From positions 16,997 through 80,996 of the forward strand of contig DIRP01000002.1 of assembly GCA_002427525.1 (NCBI GenBank): 64,000 nt of DNA, read 5' to 3'. Position numbers and translations under genes: made by a program. The notes under the pieces were generated by a model. That model was not told the DNA's origin, ran no database searches, and worked only from the letters and a program-made list of their open reading frames with translations. The stretch is from Bacteroidales bacterium UBA5433 (GTDB taxonomy: Bacteria; Bacteroidota; Bacteroidia; Bacteroidales; UBA932). This document shows, piece by piece, positions 3,164 to 36,822 of this stretch; position 1 is the first letter of the stretch, and every line of letters begins with the position of its first letter.

Positions 3164-3168
3164 TAAGA

Positions 3169-3176
3169 CAAATATA
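3169..3176 (-). promoter_or_regulatory. Bacteroidota-type -7 promoter box (TATATTTG on minus strand) for the thiF-like operon
   Basis: Exact TAnnTTTG match on the minus strand, 19 nt upstream of the TTG at 3149. Confidence 0.4.
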
Positions 3177-3193
3177 CAATTAAAAGATTTTCT

Positions 3194-20001: not shown

Positions 20002-20102
20002 GTGAAAATCAATAAACAACGTTTCAATATAACATGTGTGTTATATAATGTAACAATAATGTTGTACTCTTAGTAAATAGAGTAAAATCAGGCTGTTACG
20101 AT

Positions 20103-21596
20103 CTAGAGATACGAATCTACACCCAGGTTCTCGTACGTTTCTTTCAACGCCTTTTCATCATCAGAAATTATGAGCAGTGTATCCTTTTCCAGGATCTCTG
20201 TATTGCCCCTGGGAATGAAAAAAGAGTCTCCTCTTTTTACCATTACTACAAGTGTTTTATCGGGCAGGGGAATGTCCATCATCTTGTTTCCAAAACGAAG
20301 GCTATCCGCAGTAACGACTACCTCGTTCATGGCAGATTTAATATCCTCGGAAAATTCAAGTTCAAAGGCTGACCGACCAATTTTCTTGTGGGGAAATGCC
20401 ACATGCAGCTTTCTGGCAATCCAGGGTATGGAAGTTCCTTGTACGAGCAACGACAGGATGGTGATGAAAAAAACGATATTGAAAAGGACATTGGCTCCCG
20501 GAACGCCATACAATAAGGGGTAGGTAGCAAAGATAATGGGCACAGCACCCCGTAACCCTACCCAGCAGGTAAAAATACGGGAAGGAAAGGTCATGTTGCG
20601 GAAAGGCCAAAGGGAAAGCAACACAGCTGCAGGTCTGGCAAAAACAATCATAAATACACCAATGAGCAATCCAATACCCGCTACGGGCCACAATTCGGAA
20701 GGATTTACCAGCAGTCCCAGGGTAAGGAACATAATGATCTGAGCCAGCCAGGAAAGTCCGTCAAAAAAGTTTTTGGCCGTTTTTCTGTGGGGGAAACGTG
20801 AATTTCCAATTACAAGACCTCCAATGTACACGGCAAGGAATCCGTTACCTTGTATAAGATCTGTGAGCGAATAAATAAACAGACAAAATGCAAAAATAAG
20901 AATGGGGTATAGGGCATCGTTGATGATGTTCATTCTTCGTAAAAAGAAAGCACAAAGCTTGCCCAACAGGTATCCGGCTATACCACCTACAATCATTTGG
21001 TAGAAGAACATAAGGACCACTAACCAGATTTTAGCCTGCCCTTCTGCCATAATAACCTGAATGAGGGTAATGGTAAGCATGTAGGCCATGGGGTCGTTGC
21101 TTCCGCTTTCCAGCTCCAGGAGGGGCCGTAAGTTGTGTTTAAGCTTCAGTTCTTTAGATCGGAGGATGGCAAAAACCGAAGCCGAGTCTGTAGAAGACAT
21201 CAGGCTGCCCAGCAGCAGACATACAGGAAGAGGCATATCAAATCCGGGCAACATTTGGGCCAGGAAGTAAATGAAAAAACCTGTTAGGATAGCTGTCAAT
21301 AAGACTCCCAGGGTAGCCAGAATGATTCCTTCTTTTGCTACCGGTTTGATTTCCTCGTACCGGGTATCCATGCCACCGGAAAAAAGAATGATGCTTAGAG
21401 CTACCACACCAATAAATTGTGCTGTTTTTTGGCTTGAGAATTGCAGTCCAACGCCTTCGCTGCCAAATACCATTCCTACAAGAAGAAACAGCAAGAGGGT
21501 GGGAACACCAAATTTATAGCCTGTCTTGCCTGCCAGTAAACTAAAGAAGAGAAGTACAGAGCCAATCAGAAGGATGTTTTCAGCGGTGATCGTCAT
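20103..21596 (-). CDS. K+/H+ antiporter (CPA1, NhaP2/CvrA-like) with a C-terminal TrkA-C (RCK_C) domain
   Basis: About 12 TM segments and a LESGSNDP motif. The C-terminal soluble domain (VVMVKRGDSFFIPRGNTEILEKDTLLII) is typical of TrkA-C. Confidence 0.85.
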   Translation of the reverse strand: MTITAENILLIGSVLLFFSLLAGKTGYKFGVPTLLLFLLVGMVFGSEGVGLQFSSQKTAQFIGVVALSIILFSGGMDTRYEEIKPVAKEGIILATLGVLLTAILTGFFIYFLAQMLPGFDMPLPVCLLLGSLMSSTDSASVFAILRSKELKLKHNLRPLLELESGSNDPMAYMLTITLIQVIMAEGQAKIWLVVLMFFYQMIVGGIAGYLLGKLCAFFLRRMNIINDALYPILIFAFCLFIYSLTDLIQGNGFLAVYIGGLVIGNSRFPHRKTAKNFFDGLSWLAQIIMFLTLGLLVNPSELWPVAGIGLLIGVFMIVFARPAAVLLSLWPFRNMTFPSRIFTCWVGLRGAVPIIFATYPLLYGVPGANVLFNIVFFITILSLLVQGTSIPWIARKLHVAFPHKKIGRSAFELEFSEDIKSAMNEVVVTADSLRFGNKMMDIPLPDKTLVVMVKRGDSFFIPRGNTEILEKDTLLIISDDEKALKETYENLGVDSYL

Positions 21597-21614
21597 GGTT
21601 TTGTTCTAATTGGA

Positions 21615-21622
21615 CAAAAGTA
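21615..21622 (-). promoter_or_regulatory. -7 promoter box (TACTTTTG on minus strand) for the antiporter gene
   Basis: Exact TAnnTTTG match on the minus strand, 18 nt upstream of the ATG at 21596. Confidence 0.4.
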
Positions 21623-21654
21623 CACTTTTTTTACAAAAATATGCAACCATTCGT

Positions 21655-21662
21655 TATCTTTG
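21655..21662 (+). promoter_or_regulatory. -7 promoter box (TATCTTTG) for the lysine-fermentation operon
   Basis: Exact TAnnTTTG match 24 nt upstream of the ATG at 21687. Confidence 0.45.
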
Positions 21663-21686
21663 CAGAATAATAATAAAAATACAAAT

Positions 21687-22334
21687 ATGAACAAATTGAT
21701 ACCATTGCAAGACGCGGTTTCTAAGATTAAATCGGGCATGACCGTTATGATAGGAGGTTTTCTGACGGTCGGAGGTCCAAACCTTCTGCTGGATGCAGTT
21801 CTTGAAACCGATGTTACAGACCTTACCATTATTGCCAATGATACTGCTTATGCAGACAAGGGATTTGGTAAACTGATTGCGGCACGCAAAGTTACTAAGG
21901 TCATAACAAGCCACATTGGCACCAATATAGCCACAGGCCAACAATATCACGCCGGAGAACTGGAAATTGAGTTTGTACCTCAGGGGACACTCATTGAAAG
22001 AATTCGTTGTGCAGGAGCCGGGCTGGGCGGTGTTCTTACGCCAACAGGTCTGGGAACTATTGTACAAGAGGGAAAAGATATCATCAACCTGGACGGAAAG
22101 GATTATTTGCTGGAAAGACCTTTGAGAGCAGATATTGCCCTTATTGGTGCGTCACTTGCAGATGAAGAAGGCAATTTGTTCCACCGTGGTACAACGCGGA
22201 ATTTTAATTCACTCATGGCTATGGCTGCAGATACGGTTATTGCCGAAGTGCGCGACATTGTGAAAGCCGGTGAAATTCTTCCGGAACACGTTCATACACA
22301 AGCTATTTTTGTAGATTATCTGATTAAATTATAA
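21687..22334 (+). CDS. atoD: 3-oxoacid / acetoacetate CoA-transferase subunit A
   Basis: MNKLIPLQDAVSKIKSGMTVMIGGF...GGP, followed by ELE.VPQGTL.ERIR.GGAG. The first ATG is 21687 (the ORF-track start at 21660 is TTG). Confidence 0.85.
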   Translation: MNKLIPLQDAVSKIKSGMTVMIGGFLTVGGPNLLLDAVLETDVTDLTIIANDTAYADKGFGKLIAARKVTKVITSHIGTNIATGQQYHAGELEIEFVPQGTLIERIRCAGAGLGGVLTPTGLGTIVQEGKDIINLDGKDYLLERPLRADIALIGASLADEEGNLFHRGTTRNFNSLMAMAADTVIAEVRDIVKAGEILPEHVHTQAIFVDYLIKL

Positions 22335-22373
22335 CTTTTAATATTACACAACTATTTTAAATATTACACAACT

Positions 22374-23618
22374 ATGTCAAAGAAATTGAAGCTGGAATTA
22401 TCCGACAAAATGTACGAAGACGCCCTTAAGATTATTCCCGGGGCTATTGCAGGTATTCGCCGTCCTTACAACTTTGTTCCGGGGGAATACCCCATTTATT
22501 TTGATCATGCAAAGGGAGGCAGGGTTACCGATGTGGACGGGAATGAATACATTGATATGCTTTGTGCATATGGTCCCATCATTATTGGGCACAGGGAAGA
22601 GGAAATAGATAACGCAGTCATTGAACAGATGCAGAACAAAGGGTTCTGTTTCTCCCTCACGCAACCCATTCAGAACACTTTGGCGGAAAAGCTCATTGAA
22701 TTGATACCTTCTGCAGAAATGGCCGTTTTCGTAAAAACAGGCTCCGATGCTACTTCTGTGGCTATTCGGGTGGCTCGTGCCAGCACGGGAAGACTGAAGG
22801 TCATGCGCTGCGGATACCACGGTTGGCATGACTGGTGTGTAGAAGTCAAAGGAGGTGTTCCCCAAAAATTGTGGGAAGACACTCATGAATTCCATTACAA
22901 CGACCTGGAAGGGCTGGAAGACCTGCTTAAAGCACACGGTGACGATACAGCTGCTATTATAATTACCCCTGTAGGGCATCCCCTGGCAGAAAAAGTGGAA
23001 ATGCCCAAACCGGGTTTTCTGGAAGGTGTTCGTGCTTTGGCAGATAAATACGGAATTGTTCTTGTTTTTGATGAAATCAGAAGCGGTTTCCGCTACGATT
23101 TGGGAGGTGCACAAAAACTCTTTGGCGTAACTCCGGATCTCTCCGTGTTTGGAAAAGCCATGGCCAACGGGTACCCCATTGGAGCCGTAGTTGGTAAGGA
23201 AGAACATATGAAAGTACTGGCAGACAAAGTATTTTTGTCATCCACCTTCTTCCCCAACAGCCTGGAACAGGTTGCTGCCCTTAAGACTATTGAAATACTG
23301 GAAAGAGACAATATTCTGGAAAAAATAAAGCAGAAAGGAGAAGTTTTTGGTGCCAGGCTGGAAAAGATAGTCAAGAATGTACCTTACGATGTTGAAGTTT
23401 CCGGAATTCCGCTGATGCCGTTTATTACCTTTAACAGGGACAAGGATGGCTTGTACAAGAAGCTGCGTCCGGGATTCTATACCGAACTCATCCGCCGGGG
23501 TGTTTTCCTGCAACCGTTCCACCACGGATATGTGGCATACCGCCATACAGATGAAGATATACAGTATGCGGCTGATATGGTTGAAGAATCTTTCAGAGAA
23601 TTGAAAAAATATATTTAA
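22374..23618 (+). CDS. kat: class-III (GSA-aminomutase-like) PLP aminotransferase; candidate 3-aminobutyryl-CoA aminotransferase (Kat)
   Basis: The fold assignment comes from GYHGWHDW, FDEIRSGFR and FGKAMANGYP (PLP lysine). The Kat function is inferred from its position inside the lysine-fermentation operon and the absence of a kal-like gene there. Confidence 0.6.
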   Translation: MSKKLKLELSDKMYEDALKIIPGAIAGIRRPYNFVPGEYPIYFDHAKGGRVTDVDGNEYIDMLCAYGPIIIGHREEEIDNAVIEQMQNKGFCFSLTQPIQNTLAEKLIELIPSAEMAVFVKTGSDATSVAIRVARASTGRLKVMRCGYHGWHDWCVEVKGGVPQKLWEDTHEFHYNDLEGLEDLLKAHGDDTAAIIITPVGHPLAEKVEMPKPGFLEGVRALADKYGIVLVFDEIRSGFRYDLGGAQKLFGVTPDLSVFGKAMANGYPIGAVVGKEEHMKVLADKVFLSSTFFPNSLEQVAALKTIEILERDNILEKIKQKGEVFGARLEKIVKNVPYDVEVSGIPLMPFITFNRDKDGLYKKLRPGFYTELIRRGVFLQPFHHGYVAYRHTDEDIQYAADMVEESFRELKKYI

Positions 23619-23636
23619 GCTAACACACAACGAACT

Positions 23637-24464
23637 ATGAATAAATTGATAATTACCGCAGCTATCTGTGGTGCTGAAGTACTTAAAGAACACAATCCTG
23701 CCGTACCTTATACGGTTGAAGAATGTGTACGGGAAGCACGTTCGGCCTACGATGCCGGGGCAAGCATCATTCACCTTCATGTCCGTTATGACGATGGTAC
23801 TCCCACGCAAGATAAGGAGAGGTACCGTGTGATCATGGAAGGCATTGAGAAAGCGTGTCCGGGTATTATTATCCAACCTTCAACGGGCGGAGCCGTAGGC
23901 ATGAGCAATGATGAAAGGTTGCAACCTACCGAGCTGAATCCGGAAATGGCGACCCTTGATTGTGGAACACTCAATTTTGGCGGAGACGAGATTTTTGAGA
24001 ATACAGAAAACACCATCAAGTATTTTGGAAAACGCATGATAGAACGCGGTATTAAACCGGAGCTGGAAGTGTTTGACAAGAGCATGATTGAAATGGCGCT
24101 GCGTCTGCACAAACAAGGATATATTTTGAAACCACTTCATTTTGACTTTGTTATGGGAGTCAACGGCGGTATTGGCGGTTCGCTCAGGGATTTTGTCTTC
24201 CTGCGTGGCAGCATTCCCTCCGATGCTACCTATACGGTAGGCGGCCTGGGAAGGTACGAAATGCCTTTGGCTGCTGCTGCCATCATTGACGGAGGTCATG
24301 TGAGGGTGGGATTTGAGGACAACGTATACCTCTCCCGCGGAGTATTGGCCAAATCAAATGGTGAGCTGGTTGAGAAAGTAGTACGTCTTGCACGTGAACT
24401 TGGTCGGGAAATTGCTACTCCTGATGAAGCAAGAGAAATTCTAGGGCTTCCTAAAAGAAAATAA
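23637..24464 (+). CDS. kce: 3-keto-5-aminohexanoate cleavage enzyme (BKACE/DUF849 family)
   Basis: Matches the characterised Kce as I remember it, nearly block for block: LIITAAI.GAE, IIHLH.R.DDG.P.Q, STGGAVG, PEMATL..GTLNFG, GGH.R.GFEDN, ATP..AREIL. Confidence 0.92.
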   Translation: MNKLIITAAICGAEVLKEHNPAVPYTVEECVREARSAYDAGASIIHLHVRYDDGTPTQDKERYRVIMEGIEKACPGIIIQPSTGGAVGMSNDERLQPTELNPEMATLDCGTLNFGGDEIFENTENTIKYFGKRMIERGIKPELEVFDKSMIEMALRLHKQGYILKPLHFDFVMGVNGGIGGSLRDFVFLRGSIPSDATYTVGGLGRYEMPLAAAAIIDGGHVRVGFEDNVYLSRGVLAKSNGELVEKVVRLARELGREIATPDEAREILGLPKRK

Positions 24465-24465
24465 T

Positions 24466-25509
24466 ATGAAAAAAGGTAATAAATATGGCTTGCACCGGGT
24501 TATTGAGCCGGCAGGTGTACTGCCACAGCCCGCTAACAGGCTGGATAATAACATGGATGAGATTTACGATAACGAAATTCTCATAGATGTTAAAACACTT
24601 AATGTAGACTCGGCCAGTTTTACACAAATTCAGGAACAGGCCGGAGGCGATAAAGCCAAAATAGCAGAAATTATGCTCGGCATAGTGGCCAAGCAGGGAA
24701 AACACAGAAACCCTGTTACCGGTTCGGGCGGCATGCTATTGGGTGTTGTAGAAAAAATAGGCAGCGCACTGGAAGGTAAGATAGACCTTAAACCGGGTGA
24801 CAGGATTGCCACCTTGGTTTCTTTGTCCCTGACACCGTTGCGTATAGATAAAATAAAAGATATACGCCCCGACATTGATCAGGTGGATATAGACGGGAAA
24901 GCTATCTTGTTTGAAAGTGGCATTTACGCAAAAATCCCGGATGATATGCCGGAAACTCTGGCACTGTCTGCCCTTGACGTAGCGGGAGCTCCTGCTCAGA
25001 CTGCCAAGCTGGTAAAACCGGGCGATACAGTTTTGATTATCGGAGCCGGTGGGAAGTCGGGGATGCTATGCAGTTACGAGGCTAAGAAAAGGGCCGGTGT
25101 TACAGGAACAGTAATTGGCCTGTGCCACAGCCAGCGCTCTACGCAACGTATGATAGACCTGGGTTTCTGCGATCACGTTTTTTCTGCTAACGCAACGCAA
25201 CCTGTTGCTGTCCTGGAAAAAATTGAAGAGTTAACCGGAGGTAAACTTTGTGACGTTACCATCAATAACGTGAATATCACAGATACTGAAATGACATCCA
25301 TTCTTTGCACAAAAGACACCGGGGTTGTGTATTTCTTTTCCATGGCAACCAGTTTTACGAAAGCAGCTCTTGGAGCAGAAGGAGTAGGATCTGATGTAAC
25401 TATGATTGTAGGGAATGGTTATACAAAAGGCCATGCAGAGATTACACTTCAGATACTCAGAGAAAGCGAAAAACTGCGTAAGGTTTTCACAGAATTGTAC
25501 GCATCGTAA
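24466..25509 (+). CDS. kdd: L-erythro-3,5-diaminohexanoate dehydrogenase
   Basis: The N-terminus YGLHRVIEPAGVLPQPA.RLDN...IYDNEILIDV..LN.DSASF and the Rossmann motif IIGAGGKSG match my memory of Kdd. It sits directly after kce with a 1-nt gap. Confidence 0.85.
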   Translation: MKKGNKYGLHRVIEPAGVLPQPANRLDNNMDEIYDNEILIDVKTLNVDSASFTQIQEQAGGDKAKIAEIMLGIVAKQGKHRNPVTGSGGMLLGVVEKIGSALEGKIDLKPGDRIATLVSLSLTPLRIDKIKDIRPDIDQVDIDGKAILFESGIYAKIPDDMPETLALSALDVAGAPAQTAKLVKPGDTVLIIGAGGKSGMLCSYEAKKRAGVTGTVIGLCHSQRSTQRMIDLGFCDHVFSANATQPVAVLEKIEELTGGKLCDVTINNVNITDTEMTSILCTKDTGVVYFFSMATSFTKAALGAEGVGSDVTMIVGNGYTKGHAEITLQILRESEKLRKVFTELYAS

Positions 25510-25521
25510 GCAAGTAATGAA

Positions 25522-26769
25522 ATGAAAGAAAACAGACGAAAACAGTTGTTTCCCGAGGTGACGGATCAGGAATGGAATGATTGGAAATGGCAGATACGTA
25601 ACAGGATTGTTAACGTAACGCAACTGAAGAAGTACATTGCTCTTACTCCGGAAGAAGAGGAAGGCGTAGAGCAGTCTCTTAAGCTGTTACGTATGGCCAT
25701 TACTCCTTATTACCTAAGTCTGATAGATCCGGACAATCCGGAATGTCCCATCCGTAAGCAGGCTATTCCTACAAAAAATGAAATGTACCGTTCTCCTGCA
25801 GATTTGCTGGACCCGTTGCATGAAGATGAAGATTCGCCGGTTCCGGGGCTTACCCACAGGTATCCGGACAGGGTGCTGTTACTTATAACAGACCAGTGCT
25901 CTATGTATTGCAGGCATTGTACGCGCAGGCGTTTTGCCGGTCAGAAAGACCACGAGGCTACCGGAGAAAGAATTCAGGCTGCGATTGATTACATTGCCCG
26001 TACTCCCCAGGTACGGGATGTTTTGCTGTCCGGCGGAGACCCGCTGACCATGAGTGACAGCAAACTGGAATCCATCATTAAACGAATTAGGGAGATACCG
26101 CACGTTGAAATTATCCGGATTGGTACACGCGTACCTGTGGTATGCCCGCAACGGATTACTCCGGAGCTTATGCAGATGCTGAGAAAATACCATCCCGTCT
26201 GGATCAATACGCACTTTAACCACCCCAATGAAATTACAGAAACCTCGTCTGCAGCATGTGAAATGATGGCAGATGCCGGATTCCCGTTGGGCAACCAAAG
26301 TGTGCTGTTGCGTGGTGTGAACGACTGTGTTTATACCATGAAAGACCTGGTCAGAAAATTAGTCATGATACGGGTTCGTCCGTATTACATTTACCAATGC
26401 GACTTGTCCATGGGACTGGAACATTTCAGAACACCTGTGTCTAAAGGAATAGAGATTATTGAAGGTTTGCGGGGGCATACTTCCGGGTATGCCGTGCCTA
26501 CTTTTGTTGTGGATGCACCGGGCGGGGGCGGTAAAATACCGGTTATGCCTACGTACCTTATCAGCCAGTCACCCGGCCGGGTGGTTTTGCGTAATTACGA
26601 AGGTGTGATTACAACATATACAGAACCTGCTAATTATGAAAACACCTGCCGTTGCGAACCTTGTAATGATCAGGAATCGCTGGAAGGTGTGTCGGGTATT
26701 TTGCAGGGACAACAATTATCCCTTGAACCTTCTCATTTGCAAAGAAAGGAACGCAATCACAAGAAGTGA
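25522..26769 (+). CDS. kamA: L-lysine 2,3-aminomutase (radical SAM)
   Basis: [12 protein letters not shown] radical-SAM cluster motif (25897-25920), plus [17 protein letters not shown] and RPYYIYQCD blocks typical of KamA. Confidence 0.93.
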
Positions 26770-26773
26770 CTGA

Positions 26774-27790
26774 ATGCCCTTTGTTGATCAGATACTCCGC
26801 TATAAAAGCCTCTCAGTTGTAGGGCTGGGAAAGAATACCGGCAAGACAGAGTGTTTGCGGTATATTATCAGGCGGTTGTATGAACTCAACAAAGTACCGG
26901 CAGTCACATCTATTGGCATTGACGGAGAGGGGGTTGATCGTGTTACAGCTACACCCAAGCCGGAAATACTTCTTGAAAAAGGCATGTATTTTACGACAGT
27001 AGGTTCGTTTTATTTGCAGAAACGTTTTACTGCCGAGATATGCCATGTAGAAGAAATACCGACCATTTTTGGGAAAATGTTGACGGCCAGGGCACTGGAA
27101 AGGGGGACCATGGTAATTGCCGGTCCCTCGGATACGTTTTCCCTCCAACGCTGGATTGCGGATACACCCCAACGGTTTCCCGTTGACATATGCCTTGTTG
27201 ACGGGGCCGTATCGCGTCTGAGTCCCGCTTCGCCTGCCGTAACACAATCCATGGTGTTGGCAACAGGAGCAGCTTATTCTGCCAATTTAAAAACCCTGGT
27301 TGCCGGTACAAAATTTGTGTATGATACCATTCAACTTCCGGCAGCGCCGGAAGAAATCAGGATGCAATTGGAACATACCACAAAGGGGATACGGTTCCTT
27401 GGAGAAGACGGAAGCATGGAAGATCCGGGTATTGACTCGGCTTTGACTCCGGAACAAATTAAAAAAGTTGTGGAAACGGGCCGGGAGCATATATACATTC
27501 CGGGTGTAGTGAGCAATGCGTTGCTGAAAGCTTTGCTGGAAAGAAAGGATACGAATAAAATTTGTCTGTATATCAGGGATTTTTCTCGTATTTTTGCAGA
27601 ACCTCAAACTTTTTATGCTTTTTTGCGTAAAGGAGGACGGTTTTTTCAGTTGCTTAAAGCAAATTTGCTGGCTGTATGTGTAAACCCGGTTTCTCCGGAA
27701 GGCTATCGTTTGCGTTCCAAAGAACTGGTTGCCAGCATGCAGGATGCTTTAGGCATACCGGTGTACGATATTAAAGAATCAGGAATATGA
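26774..27790 (+). CDS. uncharacterised P-loop protein in the lysine aminomutase gene string
   Basis: 338 aa with a Walker-A-like VVGLGKNTGKTE (26822-26851) and a possible Walker B CLVDGA. I recognise no other family. The gene is 4 nt after kamA and has an ATGA overlap with the next gene. Confidence 0.5.
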   Translation: MPFVDQILRYKSLSVVGLGKNTGKTECLRYIIRRLYELNKVPAVTSIGIDGEGVDRVTATPKPEILLEKGMYFTTVGSFYLQKRFTAEICHVEEIPTIFGKMLTARALERGTMVIAGPSDTFSLQRWIADTPQRFPVDICLVDGAVSRLSPASPAVTQSMVLATGAAYSANLKTLVAGTKFVYDTIQLPAAPEEIRMQLEHTTKGIRFLGEDGSMEDPGIDSALTPEQIKKVVETGREHIYIPGVVSNALLKALLERKDTNKICLYIRDFSRIFAEPQTFYAFLRKGGRFFQLLKANLLAVCVNPVSPEGYRLRSKELVASMQDALGIPVYDIKESGI

Positions 27791-29223
27791 CTTTTTCCCG
27801 TTTTGCTGACAAAATTGACGGTCTGCACTACCTGGCAGAAAAAATGGAGTTATCCGGTTCTCGTGTACGCAGGTACCTCATGAAAACTCCGTTTTGTACC
27901 AAGGCAGAAGTACTTGAAAGCCATTTTGATATACTCCAAAAGGCGTTCGATATACTGGAAACTCCGGGAACCGGTCCGGTTGTAATGCAATTGAAGCATT
28001 TGTTCACAACGGTACATGATATCAGCGGGACGCTGGAGGATTTGAAACAGCACCGTGTGCTGGATGAAATAGCCTTGTTTGAAATTAAGTACTTTGCCTC
28101 TTTGTGCCGGGATTTCAGGCTTTTATGCGAAAAACTTGATTTCACGAGCCAGGCACCGGATTGCCTGCAGCCTGTTTTTGATTTGCTGGATCCTGATAGT
28201 ACGGGAACGGCAGGTTTCTACATCTACGATTCGTACAGTAAATCCTTGGCCTATGCCCGGAAAAAAGCGGCTGCCACAGACCCTGATAAAGATTTGGCTC
28301 TCTGGGGCAGAGCCACCGACCGGGTACTGCAGGAAGAGTTGCTGGTAAGGAAGGAGTTGTCTGCTAAACTAAGCCGGATGTACGATGTCTTGCAAAGCAA
28401 TTTTGACAGGCTGGCTTATCTGGAACTATGGTTTGCCAAAGCAGAATTGGCCGGGAAGTATGGGATGGTACGCCCTGTCATAGTTCCCGCTACAGGAACC
28501 GGTACGGAAGTTTTCTCTGTTGATGGTATGGTGAATCCTGTTATAGCGGATATTCTGGCAGCAGACGGTATGACATTTCAACCGGTTTCCCTTATGCTGC
28601 AACAGGGACCGTGCCTGCTTACAGGAGCCAATATGAGCGGGAAGACGGTTGTTTTGAAAACTTTGGCTCTGGTACAGGCCCTTACGCAATTCTCATTCTT
28701 TATTCCTGCCCGCAAGGCGGTAATTCCGCTTGTAAAGGACGTTTTCCTTGTGATTGGCGACAAACAGGACCATTACAGGGGGTTGTCTTCGTATGCGGCT
28801 GAAATGCTTGAATTGGACAAAATAATGGGCATAGTTAAAGAGGGGGCAGATGTCCTGGTTTTGGCAGATGAACCGGCAAGAACTACAAATCCTGCAGAAG
28901 GGGCTGCTATTTTGTGTGCCCTTATTGCATTCCTGCAGCAATACAACGTAAGATCTCTGGTAAGTACGCATTACGGCGAGCTGGACGTGTCTGTACGCAA
29001 GCTCAGGGTGGCAGGATTTGAAGGAGGCAAGGCAACAGGGCGCCTGGATCCGGCCTCTGTCAGTAAATATATGAATTATAGCTTAATTGAAGATAAAGAT
29101 GATGCTGTACCAAAAGAAGCCCTGCTGATTGCACAGTTGCTTGGTGTAGATGCATCGTTTATTCAGATGGCACAGAATTTTTTGAAAAAGAACGGTAATG
29201 AAAGAATCCAAACTGGGGCTTGA
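27787..29223 (+). CDS. MutS domain-V-like ATPase lacking mismatch-binding domains
   Basis: 478 aa. LLTGANMSGKTVVLKTLAL (Walker A at 28624-28647), GLSSYAAEM, VLADEPARTTNP and STHY parallel MutS ATPase blocks (GPNMGGKS / STF..EM / DE.GRGT / ATHY). The N-terminal 270 aa do not resemble MutS domains I-IV. Confidence 0.7.
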   Translation: MTFSRFADKIDGLHYLAEKMELSGSRVRRYLMKTPFCTKAEVLESHFDILQKAFDILETPGTGPVVMQLKHLFTTVHDISGTLEDLKQHRVLDEIALFEIKYFASLCRDFRLLCEKLDFTSQAPDCLQPVFDLLDPDSTGTAGFYIYDSYSKSLAYARKKAAATDPDKDLALWGRATDRVLQEELLVRKELSAKLSRMYDVLQSNFDRLAYLELWFAKAELAGKYGMVRPVIVPATGTGTEVFSVDGMVNPVIADILAADGMTFQPVSLMLQQGPCLLTGANMSGKTVVLKTLALVQALTQFSFFIPARKAVIPLVKDVFLVIGDKQDHYRGLSSYAAEMLELDKIMGIVKEGADVLVLADEPARTTNPAEGAAILCALIAFLQQYNVRSLVSTHYGELDVSVRKLRVAGFEGGKATGRLDPASVSKYMNYSLIEDKDDAVPKEALLIAQLLGVDASFIQMAQNFLKKNGNERIQTGA

Positions 29224-30754
29224 TTTTGTAAAAGTAGAAAAAGCCAGAAATAAGGCGAAAGGAATCGCAGATCAGGTGCAAGACTTTGTAGAAGACTACA
29301 CCACTGTAGCGGTAGAAAGGACGCTTTGCCGCCTGATGGGTATTGACGGAACAGACCGGGATGGTGTTCCTTTGCCCAATGTGGTAGTTGACCACTTGAA
29401 GGAAAAGGGGATTCTGGGCGACGGCGTGCTTCATTTTCTGGGCAATGCACTTTACAATACAGGAAAGTCTCCTGTACAGGTTGCACAAGAAATGGCTGCC
29501 GGGAAATCAGATTTTATTTTTAAAGAAACGGCTCCGGCTGCTAAGATGCAGGAAGTGTTGCAACCCTTTGTGGATACCAGTGTGGCCAGAATCAGAGAGA
29601 AAAGACAGGTACGGGAGTCGCGTCTGGAGAGGTTGGGAGAAAGTCCCAAACCTTACGTGTACGTAATTGTGGCAACGGGGAATATTTATGAAGATGCTGT
29701 GCAGGCCACGGCGGCAGCCCGGCAGGGAGCAGACGTGATTGCCGTAATACGAACTACGGGTCAGTCGCTGCTTGATTACGTCCCGTACGGAGCCACTACA
29801 GAAGGCTTTGGTGGAACGTACGCCACCCAGGAAAATTTCAGGATTATGAGGCAAGCCCTTGACAAAGCCGGGGATGATGTGGGAAGGTACATCAGGTTGT
29901 GCAACTATTGTTCCGGGCTTTGTATGCCGGAGATTGCCGTGATGGGCGCTTTTGAAGGTCTGGATATGATGCTTAACGATGCGCTGTACGGAATCCTGTT
30001 CCGCGACATCAATATGCAAAGAACGCTCGTAGACCAATACTTTTCCAGAATGATTAACGGTTTTGCCGGGGTCATTATCAATACGGGCGAAGACAATTAC
30101 CTTACCACGGCAGATGCGGTGGAAGAGGCGCACACCGTGCTTGCCTCGGATTTTATAAACGAACAGCTGGCAAAGATTGCGGGGCTTCCCGAGGAACAGA
30201 TGGGGCTGGGACATGCCTTTGAAATTGATCCGGAACTGGAAAATTCGTTCCTCTACGAATTGGCACAGGCACAGATGATCCGGGAAATCTTTCCCAAAGC
30301 GCCGTTAAAATACATGCCGCCCACCAAATTTATGACAGGCAATATTTTTAAAGGACACATTCAGGATGCTCTTTTCAATCTGGCCGGAATCTGGACCGGG
30401 CAGGGGATTCAGTTGCTGGGTATGCCAACAGAGGCTATCCACACTCCATTTATGAGTGACAGGTTCCTGGCTATTGAAAATGCACGGTACATTTTTTCAG
30501 CCTTTAAGGATATTGGACAAGAAGTTTCTTTTGCCAAAGACGGTTTTATTCGCAACAGAGCCACAGAGGTTCTTGGCAATGCTTACACACTGCTTGAAAA
30601 AGTAGAGAAAGAAGGGTTGTTTACGGCATTGGAGAAAGGGTATTTCGCCAACGTGCGTCGCCCGCGTACCGGGGGAAAGGGGCTGGAAGGCGTTACACGT
30701 AAGTCTCCGGTTTATAGGAATCCGTATATTGAACTGTTTAAAGGAAATAGATGA
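29198..30754 (+). CDS. kamD: lysine 5,6-aminomutase alpha subunit
   Basis: MKESKLGLDFVKVEKARNKAKGIA...TTVAVERT.CRL.GIDG matches my memory of the KamD N-terminus. 518 aa. It overlaps the previous gene by 26 nt. Confidence 0.92.
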   Translation: MKESKLGLDFVKVEKARNKAKGIADQVQDFVEDYTTVAVERTLCRLMGIDGTDRDGVPLPNVVVDHLKEKGILGDGVLHFLGNALYNTGKSPVQVAQEMAAGKSDFIFKETAPAAKMQEVLQPFVDTSVARIREKRQVRESRLERLGESPKPYVYVIVATGNIYEDAVQATAAARQGADVIAVIRTTGQSLLDYVPYGATTEGFGGTYATQENFRIMRQALDKAGDDVGRYIRLCNYCSGLCMPEIAVMGAFEGLDMMLNDALYGILFRDINMQRTLVDQYFSRMINGFAGVIINTGEDNYLTTADAVEEAHTVLASDFINEQLAKIAGLPEEQMGLGHAFEIDPELENSFLYELAQAQMIREIFPKAPLKYMPPTKFMTGNIFKGHIQDALFNLAGIWTGQGIQLLGMPTEAIHTPFMSDRFLAIENARYIFSAFKDIGQEVSFAKDGFIRNRATEVLGNAYTLLEKVEKEGLFTALEKGYFANVRRPRTGGKGLEGVTRKSPVYRNPYIELFKGNR

Positions 30755-31512
30755 CCATGCTTGATAAAACACTGAATTTAACAGAAGTAAAGCCTTACGG
30801 CGATACCATGAACGATGGTAAGGTACAGCTTAGTTTTACATTACCCGTTCCTATAGGGCCCGAAGCCATAGAGGCAGCCAAGCAGTTGTTGCGAACCATG
30901 GGGTTAGACAATCCGTTGGTAGTGTATACGGTGGAACTTACTCCGGGGTTTACTTTTTTTAACTGTTACGGGAATTTGCAACATACGGTCAATTATTTGT
31001 CCATACAGGTTCCTAAAGTAGATGCTGTAGTTATGGATATGGCAGAAGCAGATGCTTATATCAAAGAACATATCGGTCGTAAATTGGTTATGGTTGGAGC
31101 CAGTACAGGAACCGATGCCCATACGGTGGGCATTGATGCCATCATGAACATGAAAGGGTACGCCGGTCATTTTGGATTGGAACGTTATGGAATGATTGAA
31201 GCCTACAACCTGGGATCTCAGGTTGCCAACGAGGAATTGATTGCAAAAGCCATAGAATTGAGAGCAGATGCCATCCTTATTTCACAAACGGTAACCCAAA
31301 AAGACGTTCATATTGAAAACCTGACCCGGTTTATTGAAATGGCCGAGGCGGAAGGGATCCGGGATCGGATGGTGCTCGTCTGCGGAGGCCCCAGAATTTC
31401 GCATGAATTAGCAAAAGAACTGGGATTTGATGCCGGTTTTGGAGTGAATACCTACGCAACGGATGTGTCCTCTTATGTGGCTCAGGAAATTGTAAGAAGA
31501 TCAACTAAATAA
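30751..31512 (+). CDS. kamE: lysine 5,6-aminomutase beta subunit (B12- and PLP-binding)
   Basis: VKPYGDTMNDGKVQLSFTLP matches KamE. The cobalamin-binding DxHxxG motif is DAHTVG (31114-31131). ATGA overlap with kamD. Confidence 0.9.
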   Translation: MTMLDKTLNLTEVKPYGDTMNDGKVQLSFTLPVPIGPEAIEAAKQLLRTMGLDNPLVVYTVELTPGFTFFNCYGNLQHTVNYLSIQVPKVDAVVMDMAEADAYIKEHIGRKLVMVGASTGTDAHTVGIDAIMNMKGYAGHFGLERYGMIEAYNLGSQVANEELIAKAIELRADAILISQTVTQKDVHIENLTRFIEMAEAEGIRDRMVLVCGGPRISHELAKELGFDAGFGVNTYATDVSSYVAQEIVRRSTK

Positions 31513-31544
31513 TAAATAGTAATAACATTCAGAAAAAAAACATC

Positions 31545-32201
31545 ATGGATAAAAATCAGATCAGGGAAACCATTGCGCGCCGCGCCGCCAGTGAATTGAA
31601 AAAAGGTGACGTAGTAAATTTGGGCATTGGATTGCCCACAGAGGTATTAAGGTATATACCTTCAGATATTAAAGTGACCATGCAATCTGAAAATGGTTGC
31701 ATGGGAATGGGAAATCCGCCTGAAGCCGGTCAGGAAGATCCTGATCTGATAGATGCAGGCGGTGGATATATTACCTTGAAAAAAGGGGCATCCTGTTTTG
31801 ATACGGCTACTTCTTTTTCTATCATCCGCGGGGGCCACGTTGATATTACTATGCTGGGCTCGTTGCAGGTAGATGAAAAAGGCAATATTGCCAATTGGTC
31901 CATTCCGGGTAAACTGACTCCGGGAATGGGAGGTGCCATGGATTTGATAGTAGGTGCGAAAAAGGTCATAGTCATCATGGAGCATACCGCAAAGGGTAAG
32001 CATAAGATCTTGGACGTCTGCACGCTCCCTTTAACAGCAGCGGGGCAGGTTGATCGCATTATAACAGAGATGGGAGTAATGGACGTTACTCCGGAAGGGC
32101 TTGTTCTTCAAGAGCTAAATGAATTCTTTACCTTTGAAGAGATTCAGGCCGCAACAGGCTGCAAGTTGATTCTTGCAGAAGATTGGAAACCTATGAATTA
32201 A
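31545..32201 (+). CDS. atoA: 3-oxoacid / acetoacetate CoA-transferase subunit B
   Basis: ARRAA.EL..GDVVNLGIGLPT and SENG (catalytic Glu region, MQSENGCMGMG), followed by MGGAMDL. Confidence 0.88.
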   Translation: MDKNQIRETIARRAASELKKGDVVNLGIGLPTEVLRYIPSDIKVTMQSENGCMGMGNPPEAGQEDPDLIDAGGGYITLKKGASCFDTATSFSIIRGGHVDITMLGSLQVDEKGNIANWSIPGKLTPGMGGAMDLIVGAKKVIVIMEHTAKGKHKILDVCTLPLTAAGQVDRIITEMGVMDVTPEGLVLQELNEFFTFEEIQAATGCKLILAEDWKPMN

Positions 32202-32222
32202 TTAATCATTTTAAAGTTAGAT

Positions 32223-33425
32223 ATGGAAAAAGTGTATATTATTGCGGCTAAAAGAACAGCCATTGGAAAAATGTTGGGTTCACTCACAGGAGTCGCTCCC
32301 GCTACTATGGCAGCAACCGTTATCAAAAACATTCTGGAAGAAACAAAAATTGACCCTGCAAAGATTGATGAAGTCATTGTGGGAAACATCCTCATGGCAG
32401 GACAAAAGCAAGGGGTGGCACGTCAGGCTGCCGTTCAGGCAGGAATCCCGCATCATGTCCCGGCTTATGGGGTGAACATGATTTGTGGCAGCGGAATGAA
32501 ATCCATAATGAACGGATACCAGTCCATTCTAAGCGGCCATGCCTCCCTTGTTCTGGCCGGCGGGGTAGAAAATATGTCGGATGCCGGGTTCGTCATGCAA
32601 GGAGTTCGTCAGGGCATTAAGATGGGTGATTTTAAAGCCATTGACCATATGGTATGTGATGGACTTACAGATGCTTTCGGCAATTACCACATGGGAATTA
32701 CAGCAGAAAATATTGCTGAAAAATACGGAATTAGCCGGGAAGAACAGGATGCATTTTCCTACAAATCTCAGCAAAAAGCCATTCGGGCTATTGATACCGG
32801 AATGTTTAAAGACGAAATAGTACCTCTGGAGATTGCACGCAGAAAAGAAACGTTTGTTTTTGATACGGATGAATTTCCCAACAGAACAACCACATTGGAA
32901 AAAATGTCCGGTTTACGGCCTGCATTTAAAAAAGACGGAACCGTGACTGCAGCCAATGCGTCCGGAATCAACGACGGCGCTTCCTTTGTTTTACTGGCCT
33001 CGGAAAAAACCGTTAAAGAATTGGGACTTAAGCCACTGGCCGAGATTGTAGCGGCCGATCAGGGAGGTGTGGACCCGGCATATATGGGCATGGGCCCGGT
33101 TCCTGCGATAGGTAAGGTGTTGAAAAGGGCAGGCATGAAACTCGGTCAGATGGATTTGCTGGAACTGAACGAGGCTTTTGCTGCGCAGTCGCTGGGTGTG
33201 ATTCATGAGCTGAAGGAACAGCATGGAGTAGATAACGGATGGTTCGATTCCCATTGTAATGTGAACGGGGGTGCTATAGCGCTGGGGCATCCTATCGGAG
33301 CTTCCGGAAACAGGATTACCGTAACCTTGATTTATGAGATGAAGCGCAGGAATGCAATGTACGGGATGGCTTCGTTATGTATTGGCGGGGGAATGGGAAC
33401 AGCTCTGATTCTTAAGAACGTATAA
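32223..33425 (+). CDS. thl: acetyl-CoA C-acetyltransferase (thiolase II)
   Basis: VYIIAAKRTAIGK, NMICGSGMKS (active-site Cys), NVNGGAIALGHPIGASG and CIGGGMG signatures. Confidence 0.92.
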   Translation: MEKVYIIAAKRTAIGKMLGSLTGVAPATMAATVIKNILEETKIDPAKIDEVIVGNILMAGQKQGVARQAAVQAGIPHHVPAYGVNMICGSGMKSIMNGYQSILSGHASLVLAGGVENMSDAGFVMQGVRQGIKMGDFKAIDHMVCDGLTDAFGNYHMGITAENIAEKYGISREEQDAFSYKSQQKAIRAIDTGMFKDEIVPLEIARRKETFVFDTDEFPNRTTTLEKMSGLRPAFKKDGTVTAANASGINDGASFVLLASEKTVKELGLKPLAEIVAADQGGVDPAYMGMGPVPAIGKVLKRAGMKLGQMDLLELNEAFAAQSLGVIHELKEQHGVDNGWFDSHCNVNGGAIALGHPIGASGNRITVTLIYEMKRRNAMYGMASLCIGGGMGTALILKNV

Positions 33426-33511
33426 TTTATAACGTATAACTTATTAGCGTGCTCCGGGCTGCTGTATCTAAAAAATAGTTTTTTTGTGTTGAAAGTTTTA
33501 AATCTTTGATT

Positions 33512-35158
33512 ATGAAAACACATTATCTAGAATATATTAGAGACAGTATGGTTAAGGCGTGGGATTCGCCGGCAATGACCAATTACAACAAGAATTCCTA
33601 TACCTACGGAGAAGTAGCCCGGAATATAGCACGTCTTCAAATTTTATTTGAAAAAACCGGATTAAAAAAAGGCGATAAAGTAGCACTTTGCGGGCCCAAC
33701 AGTGCCGAGTGGGGTATTGCCTTTTTAGCGGTTACCAGTTACGAATCGGTAGCAGTGCCTTTACTGAATGATTTTCTTCCTGAAAGCATCATGACGCTGA
33801 CAGACCACTCCGAGGCACGTTTTTTATTTGTAAGTAAAGATATCTGGGAAAAGATGGATGTTGCCCGCATACCTTTGCTGGAGCTGGCAATTTGTTTGGA
33901 AAACAATGGCATTCTGTTTTCTAAAAACCCCGACTTCGTTGCAATTCACAACCACATAGATGAACTGTTCAGTCAAAAATATCCGGACGGTTTTGGACCG
34001 GAGCATGTAGATTATCCTACCGATAACCTGGATGATCTGGTATTGATAAATTACACTTCAGGTACTACAAGTGCTCCCAAGGGAGTAATGTTGACAAACC
34101 GCAATATTTCTTCTAACATACAGTATGGGCAAAGTGAAATACCCAACGGGCCGGAAGATACCCTGGTTTCTATGCTTCCTATGGCCCATATGTATGGGAT
34201 GGCTTTTGAGTTTTTATACCAATTGGCAGGCGGAACACAGGTTTTCTTCCTGGGGAAAGTTCCGTCACCCAAAGTTCTGTTTAATGCCCTGGCTACTGTA
34301 AAACCCTACATGATTATTACAGTACCTTTGGTTATTGAAAAAATCTTTAAAAGCTCTGTGTTTCCGACCATTCATAAACCTATAATTAAAGTTCTTATGA
34401 AGGTTCCCGGTCTGGCGGCTGTACTACATGCACAGATAAGAAAGAAGTTGTTGCATGCTTTTGGAGGCAATTTGCGTACACTGATTATTGGAGGAGCTGC
34501 CATCAATCAGGAAGTGGAAGATTTGATGAAAGCTATTAAACTGCCTTATACGGTAGGGTACGGAATGACAGAATGTGCACCGATTCTTGCTTATGAGGAT
34601 GTCTCAAAATTTGTAAAAAAATCATGTGGCAAGCCTGTGCACCGTATGTCATTGAGGGTAGCTTCACCGGATCCGGAAACAGGTATTGGAGAGTTGCAGG
34701 CACGCGGAGACAACGTAATGATGGGGTATTATAAAAATCCTGAAGCCACGGCTGCTGCGTTCACTAAAGACGGTTGGCTGCGGACCGGGGACCTGGGATA
34801 TATAGATAAAAAAAATAACGTGTTTATTAAAGGACGTAGCAAGAACCTGATTGTGGGAGCCAACGGCCAAAACATTTATCCGGAAGAAATTGAAGACAAA
34901 CTTAACAACCAGCCTTATGTCATTGAGTCCGTTGTTGTGGAACGGGACAAAAAGCTGGTGGCTTTGGTATTTCCGGATTACGACCGGGTATCTCAGGAAT
35001 CTCTGGATTCTACAGGTTTGTCAAGCCTGATGGAAGAAAATCGGTTGAGATTGAATATGTTGTTACCTGTTTTTAGCAGGATTGCTAAAATTGAACTACA
35101 AGACGAAGCTTTTGAAAAAACGCCCAAACGCAGTATCAAGCGGTTTTTGTACAAATAA
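33512..35158 (+). CDS. AMP-dependent acyl-CoA synthetase (long-chain fatty acid-CoA ligase-like)
   Basis: YTSGTTSAPKGV AMP-binding motif, GYGMTE, and TGDLG...D....FIKGRSKN. The first ATG is 33512 (the ORF-track start at 33506 is TTG). Confidence 0.85.
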   Translation: MKTHYLEYIRDSMVKAWDSPAMTNYNKNSYTYGEVARNIARLQILFEKTGLKKGDKVALCGPNSAEWGIAFLAVTSYESVAVPLLNDFLPESIMTLTDHSEARFLFVSKDIWEKMDVARIPLLELAICLENNGILFSKNPDFVAIHNHIDELFSQKYPDGFGPEHVDYPTDNLDDLVLINYTSGTTSAPKGVMLTNRNISSNIQYGQSEIPNGPEDTLVSMLPMAHMYGMAFEFLYQLAGGTQVFFLGKVPSPKVLFNALATVKPYMIITVPLVIEKIFKSSVFPTIHKPIIKVLMKVPGLAAVLHAQIRKKLLHAFGGNLRTLIIGGAAINQEVEDLMKAIKLPYTVGYGMTECAPILAYEDVSKFVKKSCGKPVHRMSLRVASPDPETGIGELQARGDNVMMGYYKNPEATAAAFTKDGWLRTGDLGYIDKKNNVFIKGRSKNLIVGANGQNIYPEEIEDKLNNQPYVIESVVVERDKKLVALVFPDYDRVSQESLDSTGLSSLMEENRLRLNMLLPVFSRIAKIELQDEAFEKTPKRSIKRFLYK

Positions 35159-35159
35159 A

Positions 35160-35723
35160 TCAGATAGAAAACACACACCCGCAATACGTCTGTCTGTACA
35201 GATGTTCTTTTTGGGATAACTCTACAGAACGCCTGAATCCGTCTTTCTTTTTAAAATCTGAAGGAAGGTAGGAAATACCTCCTGTCCGGCAGGCTGTTTC
35301 TTCCCCCAAAGTATTAATTAGTTTTGCGTTTTTGTGCGGACTAAGTGTTAGCGTGGTGCAAAAGAAGTCAAAATTGTTTTCTTTGGCATACCGTGCTGTT
35401 TCCTGCAACCGCAAACGAAAACAAATTTCACACCTGCGACCTCCTTCCGGTTCGTTTTCATAACCCCGGACAGCTTCCAGGAAAAGTGCAGGGTCTGCAT
35501 TTCCTGCAACAAACGGAATTTTTGAACCATAAGTCTGCTGTATGTACCTCTCGGCTTCGTTTTTCCTTTTATCGTATTCTGCATTTGGCGCAATGTTGGG
35601 GTTGAAAAAGAAAACGGATACAGCATAGTGCGGAACCAAACGTTCCAACACTGTTGTAGAACAGGGTCCGCAACAGACATGAAGCAATAACCGGGGAAGT
35701 TTGTTTTCCATAGGAATATTCAT
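35160..35723 (-). CDS. queH: epoxyqueuosine reductase QueH (DUF208)
   Basis: LLLHVCCGPCS, plus RC..CF..RL and YRQ.YCGC cysteine motifs characteristic of DUF208/QueH. The true start may be the second Met (35711). Confidence 0.85.
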   Translation of the reverse strand: MNIPMENKLPRLLLHVCCGPCSTTVLERLVPHYAVSVFFFNPNIAPNAEYDKRKNEAERYIQQTYGSKIPFVAGNADPALFLEAVRGYENEPEGGRRCEICFRLRLQETARYAKENNFDFFCTTLTLSPHKNAKLINTLGEETACRTGGISYLPSDFKKKDGFRRSVELSQKEHLYRQTYCGCVFSI

Positions 35724-35743
35724 TCAAATATAATGAATTTGAT

Positions 35744-35751
35744 TACTTTTG
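35744..35751 (+). promoter_or_regulatory. -7 promoter box (TACTTTTG) for the RND efflux operon
   Basis: Exact TAnnTTTG match 18 nt upstream of the ATG at 35770. Confidence 0.4.
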
Positions 35752-35769
35752 CACCTAATATAATGTAAC

Positions 35770-36822
35770 ATGATGAAATCAATAAATAATCAGACCGTAC
35801 TGGTTTTATCTGCCTTGCTTTTTTTTGTGACTTCCTGCCATTCCGGGACCTCTAATCAGAAGCAGGCTGGGGGGCCTGTGAAGGTTAAGGTTCATACTGT
35901 TTCTGAAAACAGTATGAAGTCAGAAAGGGAGTACGTTGGCGTGGTAGAAGAGGCTAGTAATGTAGCTTTGAGTTTTCCGTCACCCGGTAAGATTAAAAAG
36001 GTGTATGTTTCTGTTGGACAGCATGTACGTGAAGGACAGGTGTTGGCTTGTACCGATTCGGAAACTTTGGAAAATATGCACGCTACTTCGCTGGCAATGC
36101 TCAAACAAGCAGAAGATGCCTGGGACAGGATGACGCTTCTTTATGAATCGGGTACTTTACCGGAAATTCAGTACGTTGAAATTCGGACCAAACTGGAGCA
36201 AGCGAGAGCTTCAGAAAGGATTGCTGCCCGGGCGCTGGCAGAAACAGAATTAAGAGCGCCTATGGAAGGAATAGTAGGCAGGCGCATGGTAGAAGTAGGA
36301 ATGAACGTACTGCCTGACCAGCCTGTAATGACCCTGCTGAATACACGCAGACCTGTAGTCAACATTTCCGTTCCTGAAAATGAGGTGTTTGATACAAAAA
36401 CAGGACAGACCTCCCGGATACAGGTTGGTGCTTTGAAAAACCTGGAATTAACCGGAAAGGTAACGGAAAAAGGTGTGAAGGCACACCCTTATACACACGG
36501 GTACGGAGTGAAAATTACCCTTGACAGGGAAGTTCCCGGCTTGCTTCCGGGCATGGTATGTAAGGTATATCTTAACAATGTACCTGTGGAAAGCAACGTA
36601 GTGGTTCCGCCACGTGCCATTATTCCGGAAGCATATAAACGGGGACATTATGTGTGGGTACTGGACAATGAAAATGAAGTTCACAAAAGAACGGTACGTA
36701 TTGGAGGAATTGTTCCCGGAGGAATAACAATCAAAGAAGGAGTATCACCGGGAGAAAGGGTGGTTGAAGAAGGCCACCAGAGAGTAAGTGAAAATATTAA
36801 AGTAGAGGTAGTCAATGAGTAA
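35770..36822 (+). CDS. RND efflux periplasmic adaptor (membrane fusion protein)
   Basis: Lipoprotein signal (FFVTSC), a biotinyl/lipoyl-like hairpin (G.I..V.V..G..V..GQVL) and L.AP..G.V motifs. Overlaps the RND pump gene by 8 nt. Confidence 0.85.
   Translation: MMKSINNQTVLVLSALLFFVTSCHSGTSNQKQAGGPVKVKVHTVSENSMKSEREYVGVVEEASNVALSFPSPGKIKKVYVSVGQHVREGQVLACTDSETLENMHATSLAMLKQAEDAWDRMTLLYESGTLPEIQYVEIRTKLEQARASERIAARALAETELRAPMEGIVGRRMVEVGMNVLPDQPVMTLLNTRRPVVNISVPENEVFDTKTGQTSRIQVGALKNLELTGKVTEKGVKAHPYTHGYGVKITLDREVPGLLPGMVCKVYLNNVPVESNVVVPPRAIIPEAYKRGHYVWVLDNENEVHKRTVRIGGIVPGGITIKEGVSPGERVVEEGHQRVSENIKVEVVNE

Follow-up and report, generated by a model that had tools for sequence, protein, structure and literature searches.

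The reactivases DdrAB/GdrAB and EutA use ATP to release damaged cobalamin from adenosylcobalamin (AdoCbl)-dependent enzymes that have undergone suicide inactivation (Toraya and Mori 1999, cited in PMC3958899 and PMC9081730). Here we analyze kamB and kamC, two adjacent genes in a lysine-fermentation operon of Bacteroidales bacterium UBA5433. The genes lie in a stretch of 64,000 nucleotides (nt) of forward-strand DNA (GenBank assembly GCA_002427525.1, contig DIRP01000002.1, positions 16,997 to 80,996), which we refer to as the window and from whose first letter all coordinates are counted. They are flanked by kamA on one side and by kamD and kamE on the other.

KamDE represents the AdoCbl- and pyridoxal phosphate (PLP)-dependent core (E1, alpha2beta2) of lysine 5,6-aminomutase, and an auxiliary sulfhydryl protein of ~80 kDa, E2, is responsible for the ATP-dependent activation and reactivation of the enzyme (PMC3958899, PMC9081730). 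Recombinant KamDE is active alone, yet it suicide-inactivates and cob(III)alamin stays bound (PMC3958899, PMC9081730). We consider it likely that kamB and kamC encode the two subunits of an ATP-dependent reactivase of KamDE, that is, the classical E2 activating protein. Open-access papers testing what KamB or KamC do were not found, and the assignment is therefore based on curated annotation, on gene context and on classical biochemistry.

Family membership and gene order of kamB and kamC

Both proteins were recognized by equivalog models of NCBIfam release 20. KamB reached 296.3 bits (cut-off 210) against NF052386, "lysine 5,6-aminomutase reactivase subunit KamB", with residues 13-333 aligned to positions 1-326 of the 326 model positions. 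KamC reached 389.1 bits (cut-off 300) against NF052383, "lysine 5,6-aminomutase reactivase ATPase KamC", and matched the model in two stretches, the best of which joins residues 179-465 to model positions 218-507. Pfam contributed little: it matched nothing in KamB, not even when 25 members of the family were searched at E<5, and only MutS_V (aa 277-407) in KamC. An earlier note, made from the letters of the window, had proposed that the two genes encode a B12-aminomutase reactivase equivalent to the classical ATP-dependent E2, and NF052386 and NF052383 assign this same function with their cut-offs passed. The note had also stated that the genes have no recognized role in lysine fermentation, which does not hold, and had known of no genes assigned to the activating protein. 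The equivalogs name both proteins, and the assignment already stands in annotation. The proteins of the window are members of families defined before, KamB and KamC, and the reasoning of the note was therefore sound but not new. The reactivase assignment is already known from curated annotation, and the present one is a rediscovery.

Indeed, RefSeq/NCBI and UniRef already label homologs as KamB/KamC reactivase, the clostridial ones as "reactivase subunit KamB", while older or automatic records list the same proteins as "hypothetical" or "DNA mismatch repair protein MutS/MutS2". Clostridial members of the two families occupy the same genomic position and score 433-642 bits. Compared with these, KamB and KamC of the window (296 and 389 bits) are divergent members, and KamC is ~30-32% identical to its clostridial counterparts. 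kamB and kamC are real genes. Each has hundreds of full-length homologs, and among 1.84 billion cluster representatives the KamB profile retrieved 2155 at E<=1e-3 and 902 at E<=1e-30. An identical KamB and an identical KamC are present on a Bacteroidales metagenome-assembled contig.

The two open reading frames (ORFs) of 338 and 478 aa that the earlier note had described, together with their spacing, were confirmed by reading coordinates and junctions directly. The stop of kamA (26769) is separated from the kamB start by the 4-nt spacer ctga, kamB and kamC share a start/stop ATGA overlap at 27787-27790, and the 3' end of kamC overlaps the start of kamD (29198) by 26 nt. The family model, whose alignment begins at residue 5, is consistent with this kamD start, as is the N-terminus of one homolog (MESKLGLDF...).

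A genome scan with the KamB alignment returned 585 relatives. Context was taken from the best 80 loci, all of them Bacteroidota lysine clusters, in which, as in two additional clostridial loci, the proteins of the window were located. Counting only loci with room for the gene in question, kamA was found directly upstream of kamB in 74/74 loci, kamC directly downstream of kamB in 74/77 and kamD directly after kamC in 65/70. In three loci kamC was not called next to kamB: one of them contains a run of N, and another encodes a KamC too diverged for the filter; in the latter, a MutS_V gene does occupy the expected position. In the kamD exceptions, kamC is followed by unrelated genes or, in a single locus, such genes separate kamC from kamD; these exceptions may represent insertions or binning/assembly artefacts. 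A profile of more distant KamB representatives retrieved Clostridia. In Clostridium estertheticum and Crassaminicella thermophila the order is kdd-kamA-kamB-kamC-kamD-kamE, and their proteins reach 433-642 bits against NF052386 and NF052383. Conservation beside the aminomutase genes, on which the earlier note had made its proposal depend, was thus observed in Bacteroidota and in two Clostridia. The note had also mentioned similar pairs in lysine loci of Fusobacterium and clostridia. Besides the two clostridial loci seen here, a 2011 paper (PMC3149608) shows genes labeled "HP" and "mutS", with no function assigned, for lysine clusters from three sources: Fusobacterium nucleatum, a Bacteroidetes contig and Ca. 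Cloacamonas. Co-location of kamB and kamC has been visible since at least 2011.

The kamB-kamC junction is the tightest of the operon (median -1 nt, overlap in 45/77 loci, <=20 nt in 66/77), compared with a median of 44 nt for the junction of the known partners kamD and kamE; start codons were assigned by rule, so these distances are approximate. Median identity amounts to 46% for KamB and 36% for KamC versus 73-75% for KamA, KamD and KamE. Faster divergence than that of the neighboring enzymes fits accessory factors, and together with the tight junction it fits an accessory heteromer.

Irregular loci were seen as well. Unrelated genes interrupt the operon after kamB or kamC in loci L032, L040, L052, L068 and L077: an ATPase of ~475 aa in L032 and L040, two ORFs of >1000 aa in L052 and two ORFs between kamC and kamD in L077. 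These interruptions could be insertions or chimeras from the assembly of metagenome-assembled genomes (MAGs). In Crassaminicella thermophila (CP042243.1, L082 10746-12303) kamD is split into two ORFs of 231 aa and 277 aa in different frames, which may reflect a frameshift, a pseudogene or a sequencing error.

Domain anatomy of KamC and KamB

KamC is a truncated MutS2-like ABC-type ATPase with C-terminal helices. As a single sequence it matched solved MutS/MutS2 proteins from ~residue 182, up to residue 790 of E. coli MutS, which includes the C-terminal helices. The family profile aligned from position 158 with residues 473-701 of Taq MutS at E 2e-39. The AlphaFold2 (AF2) model of KamC, with a predicted local distance difference test (pLDDT) score of 88, was superposed by Foldseek on MutS2 of B. 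subtilis, T. thermophilus and T. maritima and on MutS of Taq and E. coli, with template modeling (TM) scores of 0.62-0.74 normalized to KamC and E values of 1e-22 to 1e-16. Such values over the whole chain are not attainable by the ATPase domain alone. In addition, the alignment between the MutS2 model and the Crassaminicella KamC starts at residue 5 of the latter and spans model positions 2-452. Alignments and superposition thus identify KamC as a MutS2-type core/lever plus ATPase. The earlier note had regarded the N-terminal 270 aa as unrelated to MutS, a view that has to be given up: homology to MutS/MutS2 begins at ~residue 160-180 in KamC of the window, it begins at residue 5 in the clostridial KamC, and the superposition covers the whole chain.

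All motifs of a MutS-type ATPase, namely Walker A, the Walker B Asp-Glu, the signature Ser and the His-loop, are present and invariant in KamC (Table 1), as judged over 26 homologs. G332, L333, S334, S335 and E339 are invariant around the signature; D361 and E362 are invariant too, and the catalytic Glu is thereby kept. With Walker B Asp-Glu, signature Ser and His-loop His all invariant, KamC should hydrolyze ATP. At the lever tip, L134, D135, P136, F144 and Y150 are invariant. The motifs quoted by the earlier note for both proteins were all found.

KamC lacks MutS domains I and II (mismatch and connector), KOW and Smr, and in the lineage of the window it also lacks the clamp. The absence of a mismatch-recognition domain had been noted before and is borne out: KamC matches MutS1 models only at positions ~500-730, with 87.6 bits against TIGR01070 (cut-off 641.7) and 112.8 against PRK05399 (cut-off 480), and its 478 aa leave no room for domains I and II. 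Against the MutS2 model TIGR01069 it scored 145 bits (cut-off 400), with only positions 244-455 of 790 matched, and Pfam found no Smr match in KamC. Membership of KamC in the MutS1 or MutS2 family was rejected on these grounds, that is, scores far under the cut-offs and missing domains I/II and Smr. Just after the invariant LDPD...FYIYDSYS...RK, the Crassaminicella KamC carries ~65 aa that are missing from KamC of the window and from other Bacteroidota members. A segment at the clamp position has hence been lost within the KamC family, which argues against a DNA-encircling role.

KamB is a SIMIBI-like P-loop NTPase, an assignment that can be stated at class level only. Its AF2 model (pLDDT 88) comprises a P-loop domain at the N-terminus and an alpha/beta domain at the C-terminus. 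Besides the P-loop residues listed in Table 1, GxDGE (aa 48-52), D143-G144-A145 and G165 are invariant in Bacteroidota. In a 44-sequence alignment that adds Clostridia, the equivalents of the P-loop G, K, N, K and T remain invariant and that of G23 is conserved in >=90%; most, not all, of the positions invariant in Bacteroidota stay so when the clostridial sequences are included. KamB had no match at E<=0.001 among solved structures. The best weak fold matches were SIMIBI NTPases (Get3, Soj/MinD, SRP/FtsY, HypB, and MeaB at rank 45) and cyclic 2,3-diphosphoglycerate synthetase (PDB 8ork, 8oru). The latter is the sole solved protein found for KamB by both sequence profile and fold, with E values of 0.16 (KamB aa 6-67) and 0.02, respectively; these matches are not significant, are confined to the P-loop region and imply no functional link. 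Profile comparison of KamB with KamE, KamD and KamC using hhalign detected no similarity. A mimicry of KamE or KamD by KamB, as known from DdrB and a diol dehydratase subunit, was considered and is not supported at the sequence level (hhalign probabilities <1%).

The lysine operon and other clusters of the window

According to Pfam and NCBIfam, the genes surrounding kamB and kamC form a lysine-fermentation set (Table 1).

Table 1. Features of the lysine operon, KamB and KamC in the window
Feature	Position (nt)	Strand	Remarks
CoA-transferase A	21660-22334	+	lysine-fermentation operon
hemL-like class-III aminotransferase	22374-23618	+	lysine-fermentation operon
kce	starts 23637		lysine-fermentation operon
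kdd	starts 24466		lysine-fermentation operon
kamA, lysine 2,3-aminomutase	25522-26769	+	TIGR03820 614 bits, cut-off 525
kamB, 338 aa, 37.4 kDa	26774-27790	+	NF052386; P-loop NTPase domain ~aa 1-190, C-terminal alpha/beta domain ~aa 200-338
KamB P-loop GLGKNTGKT, aa 17-25	26822-26848	+	G17, K20, N21, G23, K24, T25 invariant in 25 Bacteroidota sequences
kamC, 478 aa, 52.9 kDa	27787-29223	+	NF052383; helical core/lever aa 1-225, ATPase domain V ~aa 230-440, C-terminal helices
KamC lever tip LDPD...FYIYDSYS, aa 134-151	28186-28239	+	at the DNA-clamp position of MutS proteins
KamC Walker A GANMSGKT, aa 280-287	28624-28647	+	invariant TGANMxGK; aligns with GPNMAGKS of Taq MutS
KamC signature-like SSYAAEM, aa 334-340	28786-28806	+	aligns with STFMVEM of Taq MutS
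KamC Walker B and next residues LADEPARTTNP, aa 359-369	28861-28893	+	aligns with LLDEVGRGT of Taq MutS
KamC His-loop STHY, aa 393-396	28963-28974	+	H395 invariant; aligns with ATHY of Taq MutS
KamC family consensus vs Taq MutS			GANMSGKT / GPNMAGKS
KamC family consensus vs Taq MutS			GLSSFAAEM / GKSTFMVEM
KamC family consensus vs Taq MutS			LIDEPARTTNP / LLDEVGRGT
KamC family consensus vs Taq MutS			TTHY / ATHY
kamD	29198-30754	+	NF052384 889 bits, cut-off 600; Pfam Lys-AminoMut_A
kamE	30751-31512	+	NF052385 399 bits, cut-off 280; Pfam OAM_dimer and B12-binding
CoA-transferase B	31545-32201	+	lysine-fermentation operon
thiolase	starts 32223		lysine-fermentation operon
acyl-CoA ligase	starts 33506		lysine-fermentation operon

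The A and B subunits of the CoA-transferase sit at opposite ends of the operon, ~9 kb apart, and this split is kept in most related loci. At the place of the hemL-like aminotransferase, more distant Bacteroidota loci have kal. Perret et al., 2011 (PMC3149608) described a Kat variant of lysine fermentation, to which an aminotransferase in place of kal corresponds. Among the best 80 of the 585 relatives, only the closest loci (L002-L009) carry the kat-like gene. The window has a single kdd; many Bacteroidota lysine clusters possess a tandem pair of kdd-like genes, ~74-90% and ~60% identical to Kdd of the window (L013, L015, L017, L028, L034, L035, L045, L051, L053, L056, L059, L061-L063, L066 and L075). 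The kal of locus L016 (4425-4808), given here for comparison with the hemL-like gene, scored 197 bits against NF052388 (3-aminobutyryl-CoA ammonia lyase, cut-off 160).

Despite the B12-dependent operon, Rfam reported no family at gathering score over the whole 64,000 nt, the cobalamin riboswitch included, and no other cobalamin genes (adenosyltransferase, transport) were found across the window. A promoter/terminator scan of positions 20000-36000 gave counts not above those of shuffled controls; the consensus is unsuited to Bacteroidota, and no operon boundaries were gained.

Two further clusters are located elsewhere in the window. The region 284-5344 groups genes for a solute-binding protein (SBP_bac_11), an aldehyde:ferredoxin oxidoreductase and a ThiF/MoeB-like protein, which suggests an enzyme dependent on a tungsten or molybdenum cofactor, accompanied by its uptake/maturation genes. 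At 51795-56411 on the + strand, genes for a NamZ exo-muramidase, a GH18 hydrolase, a fusion of an APH-domain kinase-like part with a RapZ C-terminal part, and a nucleotidyl transferase form what looks like a cluster for N-acetylmuramic acid (MurNAc)/peptidoglycan recycling.

Proposed function and comparison with known systems

How might KamB and KamC act on KamDE? We propose that KamDE inactivates itself in turnover and is left holding oxidized cobalamin, presumably in KamE. KamC, which is probably a MutS-like dimer with composite ATP sites, would bind and hydrolyze ATP and thereby move its lever arms, and the conserved lever tip that stands in place of the clamp might engage KamB or KamDE. 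The B12-binding domain of KamE would then open, allowing the dead cofactor to leave and fresh AdoCbl to enter. KamB, putatively produced in step with KamC via the ATGA overlap, could serve as a second nucleotide-dependent switch or as a cofactor-handling subunit.

Several points weigh against equating KamBC with a dedicated reactivase of this kind. The sum of KamB (37.4 kDa) and KamC (52.9 kDa) is 90 kDa, compatible with, though no proof of, a 1:1 E2, and only a rough match to the ~80 kDa reported. E2 was also reported to possess AdoCbl-synthetase activity (PMC3958899), which neither fold obviously explains. Restoration of the ATP effect on KamDE has also been reported for OraS (PMC3958899, PMC9081730), so the effect known from classical work may stem from more than a single source. 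Four MAG loci show an operon that breaks off after kamB or kamC. Finally, the searchable open-access full-text literature yielded no experiment on KamB or KamC, no paper using these names in the aminomutase sense and none linking MutS to lysine 5,6-aminomutase.

The reported synthetase activity of E2, together with the transfer of label from ATP to E1 (PMC3958899), would suit a KamBC that mainly delivers the cofactor, gating the loading of AdoCbl or aiding adenosylation without ejecting anything, comparable to MeaB and the adenosyltransferase of methylmalonyl-CoA mutase. The N-terminal domain of KamB falls into the broad P-loop class SIMIBI, as does MeaB, although this fold match is weak (rank 45, E 0.23) and KamB shows no G3E GTPase motifs. 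Moreover, Pfam, NCBIfam and fold searches detected no adenosyltransferase fold or family in KamB or KamC, and the curated name is reactivase. We therefore regard delivery as the main task as unlikely, bearing in mind that both roles can coexist. Still less probable is that KamBC solely regulates KamDE allosterically, altering Km or Vmax in an ATP-dependent manner with no cofactor exchange. Classical work did describe ATP as an allosteric effector that needs E2 (PMC3958899, PMC9081730), but two NTPases with intact hydrolysis motifs would be costly for simple allostery, the fast inactivation of recombinant KamDE creates a clear need for repair (PMC3958899), and other AdoCbl enzymes are served by dedicated reactivases (PMC3958899, PMC9081730).

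The homology of KamC to MutS/MutS2 in sequence and fold, and the "DNA mismatch repair protein MutS/MutS2" label that several sources give its homologs, would also allow a nucleic-acid-directed MutS2-like protein, acting in recombination control or ribosome rescue and placed in the operon by chance. We give this reading the least credence, and very little of it. KamC has no mismatch-binding domain I, connector, KOW or Smr, it stays far under the MutS1 and MutS2 cut-offs (88 vs 642 and 145 vs 400 bits), the clamp segment is deleted in the lineage of the window, and two phyla strictly maintain kamC between kamB and kamD.

With KamBC taken as the reactivase of KamDE, an old question from the biochemistry of clostridial lysine fermentation is answered, namely that of the genes behind E2, the ATP-dependent activator of lysine 5,6-aminomutase. 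As this answer is already contained in the NCBI models and in RefSeq/UniRef names, the window adds no new assignment; it provides a divergent, clamp-less Bacteroidales example of KamBC. The remaining value is mechanistic, since it would, if true, be an unusual repurposing for a MutS-type ATPase to act on protein instead of DNA. On the practical side, rapid self-inactivation of KamDE limits its use as a biocatalyst, which makes co-expression of KamBC an idea worth considering.

KamC shares with MutS and with MutS2, the Smr-containing endonuclease/ribosome-rescue ATPase, the core/lever, ATPase domain V, the C-terminal helices and all aligned ATPase motifs. It differs from them in its reduced or deleted clamp, in having no domains I/II, KOW or Smr, and in a gene context that is metabolic, with no relation to DNA or ribosomes. 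We lean, by a narrow margin over an even chance, towards KamBC being a third, mechanistically separate B12-enzyme repair machine beside the Hsp70-like DdrAB/EutA and the MeaB GTPase types: a MutS2-derived ABC ATPase that lost DNA clamp and nuclease and now clamps and remodels KamDE with a previously unclassified P-loop partner.

KamBC resembles DdrAB/GdrAB and EutA in its proposed job and, more specifically, DdrAB/GdrAB in consisting of two subunits and in having its genes beside those of the client. In contrast, DdrAB/GdrAB and EutA are ASKHA (Hsp70/actin-like) ATPases, whereas KamC is a MutS-type ABC ATPase and KamB a P-loop NTPase, and fold searches, Pfam and NCBIfam detected no ASKHA domain in KamB or KamC. 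MeaB/MMAA, the G3E GTPase chaperone of methylmalonyl-CoA mutase, is an accessory protein of a B12 mutase and shares with KamB the P-loop NTPase class SIMIBI. The likeness is weak (E 0.23, TM ~0.22), KamB has the P-loop GxxKNxGKT and an extra C-terminal domain, and neither KamB nor KamC has a Pfam or NCBIfam match to the G3E families ArgK/MeaB or CobW. KamB also has a MutS-like partner, whereas MeaB is without one. In our comparison, KamBC thus appears to resemble DdrAB/GdrAB, EutA and MeaB in function, while in fold it belongs to none of them.

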